Assembly: GCA_964016885.1 (NCBI GenBank)
Contig: OZ024740.1
Coordinates: 185,194,001-185,258,000 of the forward strand
Source of the DNA: Eledone cirrhosa
Taxonomy: Eukaryota
DNA: 64,000 nt
Direction: 5' to 3'
Shown: in pieces, positions 10,746 to 64,000 of the stretch
Position numbering within the stretch: position 1 is the first letter of the stretch
Layout: every line of letters begins with the position of its first letter
Translations under genes and position numbers: made by a program
The notes under the pieces: model-generated
Database searches by the model: none
Told to the model about the DNA's origin: nothing
What the model saw: only the letters and a program-made list of their open reading frames with translations

Positions 10746-10824
10746 CGTCCCTACCATGGTTTCGTTCGTATTTTGAGACATCCTATTAAGGATAAATCAC
10801 GAGTATCGAACTCGTCAGGAGACA
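10746..10824 (-). ncRNA. Type I hammerhead ribozyme motif (intact core)
   Basis: Minus strand: TGTCTC-CTGACGA-GTTCG..(long stem II)..CGAAC-GAAAC-CATG-GTA-GGGACG; stem I 6 bp including G-U, palindromic stem III ACCATGGT, cleavage triplet GUA. Confidence 0.8.
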
Positions 10825-11224
10825 AACTCAATAGGACAGTTAATTTTCCAAAGCGATCCCCGCCGGAAATAGATTTAAAAAATGGCTAACACTACACACT
10901 CTCATATATATAAGTATAAGCAACTGTATATATATATCCATATGCTTATTTGTGCTGTGTACTTTTTCTTTTGTGTTAACCTACAGTCTTACATGTGTAA
11001 GATATTTTGTTGTTGGTATACAACAAACTAATGGAAGGCACCAGGAAGATTAAGAAAATAGGAAATACTGAACTATGTTAAATGGATTTTGAGGTTTGAA
11101 AAAGTTTAGCTGAAAAGAAATTAATGCGAATATAAATCAAAATAGTTTTCTTTTTTATTTCCATATCAACTTTCATATTTTGATTACAGAAAATATATTA
11201 TTAGAATCTATGTATAATGTTTTC

Positions 11225-23544: not shown

Positions 23545-25208
23545 AATTATATAGAATTCACAAGAATCAAAGCTATGTTCAAAGCATTTATTCACTTACA
23601 ATTGTTTCATCCAAACCTAGGCTTGGAGTCTTCGGAGCGTTTTTCAATGTTTGTACACATAATTGACCGCCTTTCCAATGCAAGAGACATACAGATACAT
23701 ATATTGATGTACAGTGGAGTGACATATATTATACTATACTATTTTTGTACAGCAATTCAAATTCAAAATCAAAATTAAAATTAAAACAAAATTAAAACAA
23801 AATTAAGATACATTGGGCATTTAACACAGATAATGCAGGAGGATAGTTTGTTAGTCAGATGTAGTAGTTAGTGTATGCATTAGTTACACATGGGGCATGC
23901 AAGTGTGTCTCATTTATATATGATTATTGTGTGGCAGGGTGTTACATGTAATACAAGCACTTTAAGCGGGTAAGTAAGAGTATTATGGTGGTTGTAGTGG
24001 TAAGGTATTTTTTGTATAGAATTTTCTCTCTCTCTATATATATTTAAAAAAATAGAGGTGTGACACACGACTTGTGATATATTAGTAAAAAGGAAAAGAA
24101 AATGCTGACAAATTTTTCTCAGTGAAAAATAGTTTAATTAGGAATAAGTATAAATTAGTAATAAGTATTAGTTAGTATTCAGTTTTAGATTTAAGTTTTA
24201 CTGATGCGCTGGGTGTGGGTGGCTTTATCTTTAAATTTGTAGAGGGGAAAAATTCTAAAGTTGGGATGATTTTGGGCAGCACAGGTATCTCAGTGCTATT
24301 TTTCTGTATTCCCGTATTTTGATTTGGGATCTATGGACAGTCATGCGCTGGCGGTTTTAGTCTGGCATTTGTATTGTTCTCAACAACCTGAGCAAGTTAA
24401 TACATATATTAGGTTTTCTGATGTGCATGTGAAATTGTGTTTTACTATAACACGTTGTCCTTGTTTGAAATATAATTCCGAACCCTCTATTAGGTTGATG
24501 CATATACCACAGTTGAGTCTATCGTATTTTTTTTACTGTGGGTTTCGTTGTTGTGGTTGGCAGTACTTTGTCATGTGTTAGGATGTTTTTCATTGACTTA
24601 GATTGTCTTTTGCTCTTTATGATATCGTCTGTTCGAAGGATTTGGTTCATTCTATGGTCCTTTTTTAATACAGGGATGTTCTGGAGGATGGAGTCAAAGG
24701 CCTCATTGTTGAGGGGGTTGTGTGTGGATATGTATGGAAGAGCTTTTAGTTTCGGTTGATTAACTTTAGGGTGTCTAAGGTCCTGGGTACTGATTTTTAG
24801 GGCACGTTGCATTCCATTGTCAATTAGTGATGCAGGGTAGTCCCTCCTTATGAGTGTGTCCTTTAGTTCTTGTAAACGTAAGTAACAGGTGTTTTTATTG
24901 GAAACTATAGTACAGATTCTCTTGGCTAAGTTGTAGGGAATATTAATTTTAACGTGTCAAGGGTGGCATGAATTGAAAGGAAGATATTGCTTGGAGTCTG
25001 TGGGCTTGTAGTATATGTCTGTTTCTATTTTTTTGTTATTAATCTTAATGAGGATGTCGAGAAAGGGGAGTTGTTGATGGCTGTATTCCATTGTAAAATT
25101 AATATTCGTGTTCTGTCCATTTATAAGAGTGTGAAGTTCTTTAAGTTTCTCGATGTTTTCGTACCAAAGGATGAAGTAGTCAGCTAGATATCTCTTCCAG
25201 TTCTTTTC
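23545..25208 (-). mobile_element. 5'-truncated Penelope-like element (RT C-terminus, GIY-YIG endonuclease, 3' non-coding region with HHR)
   Basis: Minus-strand peptides WKRYLADYF, INFTME..LPFLDILI..TDIYYKPTDSKQYL.FNSCHP..NIPYNLAKRI, LPYISTHNP, and FTCTSENLIYVLTCSGC.EQY (GIY-YIG); several stops; (TA)n at the 5' junction; the 3' boundary is approximate. Confidence 0.85.
23593..23639 (-). ncRNA. Hammerhead motif downstream of the Penelope-like ORF
   Basis: Minus strand: CGCT-CCGAAGA-C-TCCAAGCC TA GGTTTGGA-T-GAAAC-AATT-GTA-AGTG; palindromic stem III ACAATTGT; core U4->C. Confidence 0.65.
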
Positions 25209-27899: not shown

Positions 27900-28230
27900 A
27901 TCATCATCATCACAGTTTAACATCCATTTTTCCATGCTAGCATGGGTTAGACAGGTTGTCATGTTGTGGGATAGGTCAGGTGACCATGTCTTTCTCATAC
28001 ATAACTCATTTTGGCTTTGTTTCTACAGCTGGATGCCGTTCCTAATGCCAACCACATTTAATTTGAGTAGTTTGTATGTTTTGTCATGCAACCTATGCGA
28101 CCACTTTACAGTGTGGGCTGGGTGCCTTTTGTCATGACACCTACTCAACCACTTTACTGTGTCGTCTGGGTACTTTTTTCTCATCTCACCTACACAACCA
28201 CTTTACAGTGTGGGCTGGGGCCTTTGTGGG
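27900..28230 (-). mobile_element. Older RTE LINE 3' UTR fragment
   Basis: (TCA)n..tccatgctagcatgggttagacagg..ttctacagctggatgccgttcctaatgccaacc. Confidence 0.75.
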
Positions 28231-41362: not shown

Positions 41363-41602
41363 AAGCACCCAGCCCACACTGTAAAGTGGACGTGTAGGCG
41401 CCACGAAAAAGCACCCAGCACTCACTGTAAATGAGGTTGGTGTTAGGAAGGGCATCCAGCTGTAGAAATCAAGCCAGATCAGTTCCTGTATGAGCAAGGC
41501 ATGGTCAGCCGACCAGACACTGCCCACAACAGGACAACCCGTCTAACCCATGCTAGCGTGGAAGAACGGACGTAAAACGGTGATGATGATGATGATGATG
41601 AT
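41363..41602 (+). mobile_element. RTE LINE 3' end with (GAT)n tail
   Basis: Near-identical reverse complement of 43754-43990. Confidence 0.9.
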
Positions 41603-43340: not shown

Positions 43341-43753
43341 GTGTAGTTATAAATATTCAAAAGACAGGATTGCCATAATTGGAATGACTGACCATGACCA
43401 TATGTTTGTTTTCATCAGGGCCAGATTGATTCGCAACAACAACATGGGCAATCCAATAAAGATGTCCTCAAAATGGAAATGCTTTAATCATGTTTGCTTC
43501 ATGAGGACTGACAACAATAACAAACAACATAAACACAATAACTAATTATAGAAATGAGGACAGTGTCCATCATATCTAACCATTTGTTGTTTGCTTCACA
43601 TTAATCTGATATTATATATTTTCTTAGATCTTCCAATGTATTAATTAAAGAAGTCTTTTGTAATATTGTAATTAATACAAAGAAATGTGAACATAACCAA
43701 AGAAAGTTCACGCATGCACACACACACACTCTCTCTCCCTTTATATATATATA

Positions 43754-45952
43754 TCATCATCATCATCATCACCGTTTTACGTCCGTTCTTCCACGCTAGC
43801 ATGGGTTAGACGGGTTGTCCTGGTGTGGGCAGTGTCTGGTCGGCTGACCATGCCTTGCTCATACAGGAACTGATTTGGCTTGATTTCTACAGCTGGATGC
43901 CCTTCCTAACACCAACCTCATTTACAGTGAGTGCTGGGTGCTTTTTCGTGGCGCCTACACGTCCACTTTACAGTGTGGGCTGGGTGCTTTTTTTGCTATG
44001 GCACCTCCACGACCACCTTGGGGTGTGGGGCATATTGTCTATATGCTTCAGCTTGTACCCATGGAAGGTTGGGTACTCTGTATTACTGCGTGACGCCAGA
44101 GGTTATGGTCGTGTGTCATCGCCTTTGAGAGGTGTAATTGGGTAAGGTCGGCTTTTATCACCTCATCCCAGGTCATCTTGGGTCTCCCCACTCCGCGGTT
44201 TCCATCGACTTCTAGTGCTCTGCACCTTTTTATGCAGCTGTCATCCTTCATACGCATCACATGTCCATACCAGCGCAACCGCCTCTCCTGCACACAGCAT
44301 TTGATTCCTCTTATGCTCGGTCTCTCTCTCAATTCATTTATGCTTTGTTGTTCGCGTATATTACTGTTACACATCCATCGGAGCATGCAGGCTTCGTTTC
44401 TCTCTAATCTATGTAAGTCTTCCACCTTCAGCGCCCAGGTCTCACTACCATGCAACATCGCTGTTCGGATACACGCATCATACAGTCTGCTTTTCATTTT
44501 GAGGGAGAAGCCTTTTCTAGCAAGCAGTGGTAGTAGTTCCCTAAACTTCTTCCATCCCGTTCTTACCCTAGTTATTGTACTTTCTGAACACCCACCTCCG
44601 CTGCTAATTCGGTCACCTAGGTAGTAGAAGCTGTCTACTGTTTCTACAGAGCCCTCCCAGAGATTGGTGGTATTTGTTTCCTGTGGCTGTTTGCTGCTTG
44701 CTGTCCCAGCACAGCTGCTGCATGTGAAGCCTACATTCTTAATTAAGCTTCCTGAGATCCCGCTACATCTCTTGTGTACCCATTGTTTGCATTTGGGGCA
44801 GAGAATGGAGTTCCTACCTACACCTTTCCTACATACTGAGCAAGGCCATTTCCCTGAGGGGATCTGGGTTCTGTTTTCTCATCTACTTACAAGGACCTTA
44901 GTCTTTGTCATGTTGACTTTGAGACCCTTTCTTTCTAGTCCCTGCTTCCAAGTTTGGATTTTCTTCTCTAGTTCTACCATAGATTCAGCTATAACTGCGA
45001 GGTCATCAGCATACAGGAGTTCCCATGGCATCCGGTCTTAAACTCCTCCGTTATTGCCTGCAGGACTATGATGAACAGGAGGGGCTAAGAACAGAGCCCT
45101 GGAGGACCCCAACCTGTACGCTAAATTCCTCGCTATACTCATAGCTAATCCTAACTTTGCTGACTGCTCCCCTATACATGGCTTGTACAGCTTTCACAAG
45201 TCATTCATCTACTCCTAGTTTTCTAAGAGCCCACCAGATTACAGCACGTGGAACTCTGTCAAAGGCTTTCTCAAGGTCGACAAATGCCAAGTAGAGTGGC
45301 TTACTTTTAGCTAGGTACTTTTCCTGTAACTGCCTGACAAGGAAGAGGGCATCAGTGGTGCCGCTTCCTGCTACAAACCCAAATTGCATCTCGTCTAGTT
45401 TCCCCCGGTCCCTAATCAACTGTGCTATAACTCTTTCTGTTACTTTCATGACCTGGTCCATCAGCTTTATACCTCTGTAATTACCTCTATCTAGTGCATC
45501 ACCTTTACCTTTGTAGCAGTTGACAATGATGCTACTGCACCAATTTGTTGGTATGACACCTTCTAGTATTACCTGGTTAACAATACGTGTGGTTATAGTG
45601 TGACCTACAGACCCAGATGCCTTCAGCATCTCGGCGTCTATACCCGATGGACCGGTTGCCTTCCCCATCTTCATATCTTTGATTGCCTTACTTACTATAT
45701 TGCTGCTGACTTGTACTGCTGGCCCCTCTATAGGGTCTACTTGAGGTAGGGTCTCTTCTTCCCATGCATTCTCCTCATTTAGTAATCTATCATAATGACT
45801 CTTCCATGCATCTTTCTTCTCAACACTTGTGAGGGCAAGCTCACCTTTATCATTCCGGATATACTTCTCTACAATGACATCACAATTCTCTCTGACACAC
45901 TGCCTCGCAATCTTGAACACCTCCTGTTTCTGGTCCTCACGTTGCAAAACAT
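43754..45952 (-). mobile_element. 5'-truncated RTE-clade LINE (reverse transcriptase, PHD finger, C-terminal domain, 3' UTR, (GAT)n tail)
   Basis: GKATGPSG, NYRGIKL, QFGF..G.GTTDA, AFVDLEKAFDRV, LLYADDL, MLHGSETW, RRLRWYGHV, GRPKMTW; stop at 45201 and a frameshift near 45030. Confidence 0.95.
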
Positions 45953-48999: not shown

Positions 49000-49110
49000 T
49001 GAGCAAGACATGGCCACCTGACCTGGCATTGTCCACAACAGGGCAACCTGTCTAACCCATGCTTGCATGGAAACATTGATGTAAAATGATATGAACAATG
49101 ATTATATATA

Positions 49111-49940
49111 TATATTATAATAGAATATAAAAGAAAAACGAACACAGATATATAAATATTTGTGTTCAAATCGTAAGGGACCTGATTCGCTAAGATGAAA
49201 AGAATACTAACTATAGACAATTGGGTTCGCTTGTCTCAATTTAAGAAAAAATTAAGAAAATAAATACAAACCGGAATTCTGGTAACTACCAATCACCCAG
49301 ACAACTTGTTGTTTCGCAAAGTTAATTGTGAATATAAATACCAATCCAAGCTCATCAGTGGGTGAGGAATTAGTATCCTAGTCACATCTATCTATGCTAT
49401 ATATAAAATATAAAACAGCGCACATGGCATCCTAGCGAGTCTCACAAACTCACACCACTAAAAATAGCAGCCAGGTTTACTCGACATTTGAAATAGCTCA
49501 ACAAATTAACGGAGCCGAATATATTGAAGGTTTATATTGAGTTAGGAACTCAAAATAGTCTCTTACAACAAAATGGCTCTAAGAAAGAGATATTTCTGTG
49601 CCGTATATTATAATAGAATATAAAAGATTGGATTGGTATTTATATTCACAATTAACTTTGCGGAACAACAAGTTGTCTGGGTGATTGGTAGTTACCACAA
49701 TTCCGGTTTGTATTTATTTTCTTAATTTTTTCTTAAATTGAGACAAGCGAACCCAATTGTCTATAGTTAGAATTCTTTTCACCTTAGCTAATCAGGTCCC
49801 TTACGATTTGAACACATATATCTATATATCTGTGTTTGTTTTTTCTTTTATATTCTATTATAATATACGGCTCATAAATATCTCTATCTTAGAGCTATTT
49901 TGTTGTAAGAGACTCTTTTGAGTTCCTAACTCAATATATA
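49111..49940 (-). mobile_element. Retrozyme-like element: 493-bp terminally redundant unit plus a 311-bp inverted arm
   Basis: tatattataatagaatataaaaga at 49111 and 49604; 49628-49938 is the reverse complement of 49111-49349 joined to 49533-49603; TA-rich flanks. Confidence 0.85.
49293..49365 (-). ncRNA. Type I hammerhead ribozyme motif (canonical core)
   Basis: Minus strand: TCACCCA-CTGATGA-GC..GC-GAAAC-AAC AA GTT-GTC-TGGGTGA; perfect 7-bp stem I, GUC triplet. Confidence 0.85.
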
Positions 49941-49956
49941 CATTTTATATATATAT

Positions 49957-50147
49957 AACAAAGGAAATGTAGTAAGGAACCAGATGGACCATAACGCACC
50001 AAAGTACTCAATACTTAGGGTAGTAGAGTGGGTAATAGGGACAAGTATGACCCCGACGGCAGAGCTCAAGCCGTTTCGACGGCTAATTCTGGACTCAGAA
50101 TTAGCCGTCGAAACGGCTTGAGCTCTGCCGTCAGGGTCATACTTGTT

Positions 50148-50151
<4 letters not shown>
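49957..50151 (-). mobile_element. Hairpin element (56-bp arms plus about 80-bp tail) in (TA)n, copy 1
   Basis: Stem 50036-50151 with loop GACT; homologous to 57753-57940. Confidence 0.88.
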
Positions 50152-57677: not shown

Positions 57678-57741
<64 letters not shown>

Positions 57742-57752
57742 ATATATATATA

Positions 57753-57938
57753 TAGGAACAAGTAAGACCCCGACGGCTGAGCTCAAGCCATTTCGACGGC
57801 TAATTCTGAATTAGCCGTCGAAACGGCTTGAGCTCAGCCGTCGGGGTCTTACTTGTTCCTATTACCCACTCTACTACCCTAAGTATTGAGTACTTTGGTG
57901 CGTTATGGTCCACCTGGTTCCTTACCACATTTCCTTCG

Positions 57939-57940
<2 letters not shown>
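57753..57940 (+). mobile_element. Hairpin element (54-bp arms plus about 80-bp tail) in (TA)n, copy 2
   Basis: Stem 57753-57861 centred on 57807; tail ttacccactctactaccctaag..ttccttcgtt matches copy 1. Confidence 0.88.
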
Positions 57941-57974
<34 letters not shown>

Positions 57975-62907: not shown

Positions 62908-63137
62908 TATGCATATATATATATATATACATATATATGCATATATATATATATACATATATATGCATATATATATATATGCATATATATATATATATGC
63001 ATATATATATATATATATGCATATATATATATATATATATATGCATATATATGCATATATATATATATATACATATATATGCATATATATATATATATAT
63101 GCATATATATATATATGCATATATATATATATATATA
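62050..63137. repeat. About 1.1-kb (TA)n microsatellite punctuated by TGCA
   Basis: Direct reading. Confidence 0.97.
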
Positions 63138-63716
63138 TTTCAGTATACATATGTGGATGTACATTTTTAACTTAATTGTTTAAGCGCCAGTCATACAAAA
63201 GTGAGTTACAAACGAAACGAAATTTAATTTCGTTTCGTTATTTGTTTTTATCGTCTCCGCTGAACCGGTACGTACTCACGCTCTATGCAAATTAGTCTGC
63301 CCACTACTAATTTTCATAGAAAAAGCATATAACGATATGTGCTTTTACGATTCTCTAGAAAGGCCGGAAGATAGGTAAATATTGCTGATGAGATGTAACA
63401 ACATCGAAACTAGTCCAATATTCCTTGTCTGGCTTTCTGGAGAATAGAGGAAAGGTGTTTCCTCAAAAACCAGTATGACTCTAAAAACCGGTTTGTCTGT
63501 GTGTTTACATACAGAATAGCTGGACACTCACAGTAAAGTGACCAGTGAAAAACTCGGTACATCTACATATGTACACGTATGTGTATTCATATGCATACTA
63601 GTATTTCAGTATACATATGTGGATGTACATTTTTAACTTAATTGTTTAAGCGTCAGTCATACAAAAGTGAGTTACAAACGAAACGAAATTTAATTTCGTT
63701 TCGTTATTTGTTTTTA
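63136..63716 (+). mobile_element. Retrozyme-like element: 466-bp unit with about 114-bp terminal direct repeat, inserted in (TA)n
   Basis: tttcagtatacatatgtggatg...tttgtttttat at 63138-63251 and 63604-63716; central HHR. Confidence 0.88.
63351..63445 (+). ncRNA. Type I hammerhead ribozyme motif (canonical core, extended stem I)
   Basis: AATATTG-CTGATGA-GATGT AACA ACATC-GAAAC-TA-GTC-CAATATT (63378-63422); stem I continues via AGG/CCT and ATTCTCTAGAAAG/CTTTCTGGAGAAT. Confidence 0.9.
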
Positions 63717-64000
63717 TATATATATATATATACATATATATGCATATATATATGCATACATATATATGCATATATATATATGCATATATATATATATATA
63801 TACATATGCATATATATATATATATAAGAGCAGAATCCCTAGAAATAGAAAAACGCTCATCAGAAAAATTAAGAGAACGAACAAAAAGATCAACAAGCTG
63901 AATTACTGTCTGCAGCAACACATCAACTTGACTGCCATTTCATCACTAGAGATTAAAAAACATAACCTCCAAAACAACATAATGTCCCTCATCAACAATC

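Follow-up and report, generated by a model that had tools for sequence, protein, structure and literature searches.

A stretch of 64,000 nucleotides of Eledone cirrhosa DNA (hereafter the window) carries, at positions 49111-49952, a two-armed copy of a dispersed non-coding repeat with a 493-nt unit, and this element is very probably a non-autonomous repeat mobilised by a Penelope-like element (PLE). As judged from the genomic copies, the family data favour a covalently repeated template for its reverse transcription, most simply a circle. The initial annotation had read the window copy by itself as the footprint of a circular RNA, and the family data lean in that direction, but at the single window locus a circle and a linear tandem RNA are indistinguishable. 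In the main texts of earlier work, retrozyme integration and the seamless partial tandems, inverted copies and one-sided tail of PLEs stand as open questions (PMC7229834, PMC8557442, PMC11167929, bioRxiv 10.64898/2026.07.22.740005). It is the footprint of the family, not the window locus, that makes the open mechanistic question testable. The element is non-coding and 493 nt long, exists in hundreds of copies, has two start sites that are mapped (S and T) and follows a near-strict rule of one S end and one T end per pair of arms, which makes it a small, testable in vitro PLE substrate.

Architecture of the window copy

Unit positions are numbered in the sense of the ribozyme, with position 1 at window position 49627 and a period of 493. 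On the forward strand, the element reads as the reverse complement of unit positions 1-517 (49111-49627), followed by unit positions 276-493 and 1-109 (49625-49952). Self-alignment delimits a left arm of 517 nt on the minus strand (49111-49627; one 493-nt unit plus 24 nt), whose 3' end coincides with S, the fixed short end (unit position 24), and which is 5'-truncated at unit position 1 and is 97.5% identical to the subfamily A consensus. As the initial annotation had noted, 49111-49134 is an exact match of 49604-49627 (24 nt, spacing 493). This 24-nt repeat was considered as an LTR or target-site duplication and rejected: it belongs to a second turn from the S end, and such overlaps differ in length among copies.

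The right arm, which is inverted (49625-49952, plus strand, 328 nt, self-alignment), runs from unit position 276 across the boundary of the unit as far as T (position 109), the fixed end of the tail, with 96.3% identity to the consensus. When aligned with the reverse complement of the repeated unit, it forms one gap-poor block (309/328 matches, 94%) that crosses from the unit's end to its start, which bears out the earlier reading of a head-to-tail template. The arms are 94-96% alike across their shared part and, according to the arm alignments, meet head to head through their two 5'-truncated ends with a 3-nt overlap, AGA, at 49625-49627. Two details of the initial annotation needed revision: the start at 49111 stands, while the right end lies at 49952 and not at 49940; and the quoted unit junction is indeed present at 49857-49884, but marks the S start site rather than the closure of a circle.

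Beyond the S position, the right arm extends by an 85-nt tail delimited by alignment between the S and T ends (49868-49952, plus strand), with a hairpin at 49869-49895. This tail occupies an outer end in the right arm only; an internal copy of its sequence, at 49519-49603 on the minus strand, belongs to the previous turn of the left arm. Remnants of a (TA)n target flank the element on the left (49103-49115) and on the right (49946-49957), and a target-site duplication is not resolvable from the TA run at this copy. One S end and one T end make the window copy a typical S+T pair.

A complete type I hammerhead motif, with core, three stems and GUC, lies on the minus strand at 49293-49365, in agreement with the initial annotation. 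Stem I consists of 7 bp (TCACCCA/TGGGTGA), stem II of 2 bp closing a 32-nt loop and stem III of 4 bp, and the core comprises CTGATGA (CUGAUGA) at 49358-49352 and GAAA at 49315-49312. The predicted GUC cut falls after 49300, that is, after unit position 328. Neither arm stops at the cut site: the left arm continues across it at 49300/49299, and the right arm at 49677/49678, where it is crossed without a scar within the 3' half of a second hammerhead that lacks CUGAUG (49625-49684, plus strand). There is therefore one whole ribozyme at this locus, where the "active" class of Li et al. has at least two, and release of unit-length RNA by double cleavage is not expected from it. The window copy is an ordinary locus and probably a dead end.

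Self-cleavage of the unit RNA is predicted from the motif and from covariation. The ribozyme stem III pair is A-U in 60 of 92 passes and G-C in 21, and the tail hairpin pair is A-U in 56 of 108 passes, G-C in 23 and G-U in 23; these compensatory pairs are counted as copies, and one or two changes between subfamilies probably underlie them. Core bases were off consensus at 20 of 1171 positions compared with 1313 of 41824 elsewhere, a weak comparison in which one sample had been picked by a motif overlapping the core. An Rfam search reported no hammerhead at E<=1 and returned only matches to microRNA models, all under their gathering scores. The predicted minimum-energy fold of the isolated hammerhead domain is an alternative, non-catalytic one (-18.6 kcal/mol unconstrained vs -11.6 kcal/mol for the constrained hammerhead; z -1.18). 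The unit has no ORF, as originally described, the longest stop-free frame of the circular family consensus being 54 codons, and its ends, judged apart from any PBS or PPT, are not of LTR type.

Several other repeats are present in the window. A second, unrelated hammerhead repeat forms a partial tandem between TA runs at 63100-63750 (CTGATGA at 63385, plus strand), and its hammerhead motif is also found in locus L094. A third hammerhead motif, with CTGACGA at 10818, lies near TA runs at 10750-10830 on the minus strand. A further, separate repeat, about 200 nt long and very abundant in the genome, occupies 49953-50150 and 57721-57964; it contains a long hairpin and lies between TA runs. The interval 49000-49100, immediately upstream of the element, is presumably the 3' end of a repeat of SINE-like or RTE type, which has copies at 27916-27997, 41491-41577 and 43743-43861.

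The repeat family and its fixed 3' ends

The family is dispersed through a 3.0-Gb genome. Exact matches number 887 for an 18-mer immediately 3' of the cut and 274 for a 20-mer located further upstream, which indicates at least several hundred dispersed copies. Two samples of loci were compared. The first, biased to long arms, contains 60 distinct loci from similarity and motif searches, which remained from 90 fetched loci after 30 were dropped as repeats of the same place or segmental duplicates. The second contains 89 loci from the first 100 listed 18-mer matches on contig C1, with the window copy excluded. Seven loci are common to both samples, and the pooled set comprises 142 loci. Two subfamilies are present, with units of 493 nt and 517 nt, and 56 of the 89 second-sample loci contain a head-to-head pair. 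The repeat is also abundant in contigs of three runs from one sample (run kind unspecified), an abundance that has no bearing on expression.

Relatives and local variants of the unit were also observed. At L085:740-1450, a third and more distant relative (72-76% identity, decayed ribozyme) adjoins a subfamily A arm. L091, L092 and L095 (around 1500-2025) contain a sister family whose unit measures about 500 nt and has its own hammerhead-like motif; by eye this family has two ends about 85 nt apart, and it has one 14-mer and a similar tail hairpin in common with the 493-nt family, with no BLAST-level similarity. Pieces of the unit, 30 nt and 91 nt long, have been amplified in tandem within single insertions at L036:529-1221 and L193:1346-1623. 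Three copies with identical arm breakpoints (L005, L006 and L007; G000:C13:27.30-27.69 Mb) are probably a segmental duplication.

PLE-protein fragments occur in 5 of 61 unit loci, all of them as separate fragments in the flanks, none of which runs into an arm, and the unit is therefore not a pLTR that belongs to a copy with an ORF. Confinement to the flanks of a PLE ORF, raised in the initial annotation as a point against its reading, was thus not observed. No RT-endonuclease ORF lies between the repeats, as it would in an autonomous PLE. An abundant autonomous PLE family of the genome (784 aa, RVT_1 + GIY-YIG) has its own hammerhead-like motif in one tandem locus; across 36 of its loci, the one PLE family compared, no DNA similarity to the unit was found, the only match being a stray copy of the repeat at L124. 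The window itself holds, at 24519-24956 on the minus strand, a fragment of an abundant young RT + GIY-YIG Penelope-like family, in which many copies have a 784-aa frame; the family also includes partial copies in inverted orientation and, at G000:C2:359.52 Mb, a 3.9-kb tandem.

Whereas the 5' ends of the arms vary by truncation, the 3' ends are fixed. Among the 160 arms of the second sample, 62 have their 3' end at about position 24 (S), 57 at about position 109 (T) and 41 elsewhere; in total, 119 of 160 arms end at S or T, compared with 88 of 105 in the first sample (S 40, T 48, elsewhere 17). The two sites are 85 nt apart, and none of the 160 arms has a 3' end within 5 nt of the ribozyme cut. 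Circular permutation of the copy ends, which the initial annotation had proposed as a check, naming shared fixed ends as what would refute its reading, is therefore rejected, with the 3' ends fixed at the same two sites in both samples. Fixed ends do not refute a circle, since reverse transcription by a PLE begins at two sites inside the RNA according to the main text of PMC11167929; they mark where reverse transcription starts, not whether the RNA had ends. Apparent pile-ups of 5' ends at positions 233, 253 and 283 were set aside as mostly alignment breaks from the subfamily with the 517-nt unit.

The pairing of the ends follows a near-strict rule. Both outer ends are canonical in 28 of the 56 second-sample pairs, and all 28 are S+T (p 4e-9 vs a coin); the remaining 28 have at least one non-canonical end. 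The pooled 142 loci include 52 S+T pairs, 2 T+T, 0 S+S and 36 other pairs. At the join, an overlap of 1-5 nt is present in 14 of the 28 S+T pairs and one of more than 5 nt in 3. A TA repeat lies directly beyond 137 of 198 canonical ends, a raw fraction that is not set against the genome background.

Template and mechanism

Thirty-seven of the 98 motif-bearing arms in the second sample are longer than one unit and none reaches two, with a maximum of 1.64 units in the motif sample and about 1.85 in the pooled set; arms of two full units, the long product of a rolling circle, were seen in neither. One apparent arm of 2.95 units, at L085, was discarded as a false join with a more distant related family. 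Two intact cores are found in only 2 arms (at L073 and L086), and in 0 of 166 arms of the motif sample. Where arms pass the cut site, indels within 3 nt of it occur in 0 of 100 passes (second sample), and 87 of 88 passes are clean in the first sample. In addition, the 5 nt on either side of the cut contain 5 of 160 5' ends, compared with about 3.5 expected if they were uniform. With no indels at the cut and no gathering of 5' ends there, the template was continuous at this site.

The successive turns of an arm were compared for the variants they carry. Within one arm, 59 of 292 variant sites are held in common (20%), compared with 1104 of 22417 (5%) between loci of the same subfamily. In the first sample, sharing was 22.5% within an arm, 23.8% between arms for the same turn, 24.6% between arms for different turns and 5.1% between loci; in the second sample, sharing within an arm (20%) was slightly lower than sharing between arms (27%, p 0.048). 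Diagnostic subfamily sites agree between turns in 228 of 258 cases, compared with 55% between loci. Recurrent differences from turn to turn have no direction (82 same vs 71 opposite, permutation p 0.21), so the upstream and downstream turns have not been passed on as separate paralogues. The upstream turn has somewhat more derived letters (261 vs 213).

A search of the assembly for doubled motifs, run at periods of 479-509 and then of 500-520 to take in the 517-nt subfamily, found no tandem array: across periods 479-520 one motif turned up at 14 places and the other at 2 belonging to this family, none of them adjacent, in a search by exact motifs that misses diverged or unassembled arrays. Together, the shared variants, the directionless turns and the lack of an array favour regeneration of the tandem copies from a monomer, and the clean crossings of the cut site favour a ligated circle over end-to-end jumps. 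The rate of cDNA drop-off rises gradually, from 0.26 per 100 nt before about one turn to 0.95 after it, with a boundary chosen after seeing the data; A hand count of some first-sample loci (about 10 of 28 arms at 483-516 nt) had suggested that arms stop sharply after one turn in a start-specific manner, but in the 89-locus sample the stop was not start-specific, since S arms also end near positions 73-121.

The main competing account keeps PLE double priming and replaces the circle with a linear, uncut read-through RNA, transcribed from rare loci of 1.7-1.9 units or from an unassembled homogenised array. Such a template would explain both the clean read-through of the cut site and the ceiling under two units, and it fits the predicted non-catalytic best fold of the isolated ribozyme as well as the main text of PMC11167929, in which RNA left unprocessed serves as the main substrate of the anole PLE in vitro. 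A lineage of partial dimers should, however, let its turns drift apart, and instead their letters switch together at the diagnostic sites (228/258 vs 55%) with no directional differences between turns; nor does the doubled-motif search find an array in the assembly, or the 5' ends pile up at one start site. We consider this account rather unlikely. Less probable still is a ribozyme-cut linear monomer on which the reverse transcriptase jumps from its 5' end to the 3' end of that monomer or of a different one. Tandem copies would then be regenerated from a monomer, which would account for the matching turns and the absent arrays. Against it, 5' ends do not pile up at the cut (5/160), and 100 of 100 crossings have no scar; end-to-end template jumps usually add or lose bases, as in R2.

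A separate question is the origin of the inverted arm, for which two sources could be invoked: self-priming by fold-back of the first cDNA, an idea proposed for rotifer PLEs, or a later DNA rearrangement. Fold-back was put forward for palindromic junctions in the main text of PMC3846280, and it would suit the common lineage of the two arms (27% shared variants) and the few pairs with long overlaps (3 of 28 above 5 nt). A fold-back copy must nevertheless sit inside the first arm, and in 19 of 28 pairs it is the S arm that extends more in the 5' direction, while every T arm carries an extra 85 nt past S, so that most pairs do not suit fold-back. The centre is near-palindromic in only 2 of 28 pairs, and at the window locus neither arm contains the other. 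These origins are thus highly improbable in our judgement, and priming from both sides of a break appears to be the simpler reading.

The mechanism that we think probable is that a PLE cuts both strands of a TA run and primes reverse transcription from each end on an RNA that is probably a 493-nt circle. Rare loci with two whole ribozymes would release unit-length RNA, which would be ligated at the GUC site. The PLE protein would bind the tail region, and one cDNA would be started at S and the other at T. Each cDNA would then circle the template, with drop-off becoming commoner after about one turn, when its own strand would need displacement, and the two cDNA ends could finally be joined by microhomology. 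More tentatively, and with some doubt, the family may be read as a record of retrotransposition from a covalently closed ribozyme RNA, in which a PLE dimer cuts the TA run and starts its cDNAs asymmetrically, at S and at T, on the same circle. If true, one mechanism would explain why PLEs in general have pseudo-LTRs, partial tandems without seams, a tail on one side and an inverted copy.

Comparison with known systems

The repeat is a new family among non-LTR retrozymes and non-autonomous PLEs, and the element type and each of its structural features have already been published. The initial annotation, which ascribed the footprint to a circle or to tandem pLTRs, did not identify this layout as the usual pattern of PLE insertions. 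In the literature covered (main texts without supplements, with few subscription papers), nothing was found on this family, on the one-S-one-T rule or on a circular PLE template deduced from insertion footprints; the main text of the Octopus vulgaris repeat annotation lists Penelope families and does not mention ribozymes (PMC13282606).

Non-LTR retrozymes were defined by Cervera and de la Pena (2020), whose main text shows circles in coral, mussel and axolotl and proposes circle-templated, PLE-driven integration (PMC7229834). Li, Clavereau and Pollet (2026) tied retrozymes to PLE termini, counted solo monomers and, in the text of the preprint, observed cleavage in 1 of 9 tested dimers (bioRxiv 10.64898/2026.07.22.740005). 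As in the main texts of these two reports, the family here has a non-coding, AT-rich unit that carries a type I hammerhead motif and is arranged head to tail, and the genome around it contains EN+ PLEs; the window copy fits the "monomer derivative" class of Li et al. Unlike the retrozymes they describe, it is scattered in arms shorter than two units, no arrays were found, and its unit of 493 or 517 nt is longer than the reported circles of 170-400 nt. Fixed 3' ends and inverted arms characterise the present family and are not described in either main text.

Among EN+ PLEs, the main text of Craig et al. (2021) reports 5' truncation and partial tandems, a neighbouring inverted copy that is likewise 5'-truncated, (TA)n targets and a tail of 30-40 bp that is often at one end only (PMC8557442), and that of Arkhipova et al. 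(2013) reports a tail on one of the inverted pLTRs and proposes self-priming (PMC3846280). The family here matches this pattern in its 5' truncation, partial tandem, inverted copy, one-end tail, (TA)n target and, with the hammerhead of PLE terminal repeats, its ribozyme motif; non-autonomous, multicopy, head-to-tail PLE derivatives are also known from the same two sources (Chlamys/MRC1). It differs from the elements of those main texts in lacking an ORF, in its tail of 85 nt vs 30-40, in having no resolvable target-site duplication, and in having no matching terminus in the 784-aa PLE family that was compared.

The closest biochemical parallel comes from the main text of Frangieh et al. (2024), in which the Poseidon PLE protein of Anolis carolinensis cuts and extends both strands of AT-rich DNA in vitro, reverse transcription starts at two internal RNA sites bounding the tail, and ribozyme cleavage is not needed for insertion in vitro (PMC11167929). 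In both systems, two internal start sites bound a tail downstream of the hammerhead, and the target is AT-rich. Poseidon, as described there, used a linear RNA and had no strand difference in start site; in the present family, in contrast, one arm starts at S and the other at T in 52 of 54 canonical pairs.
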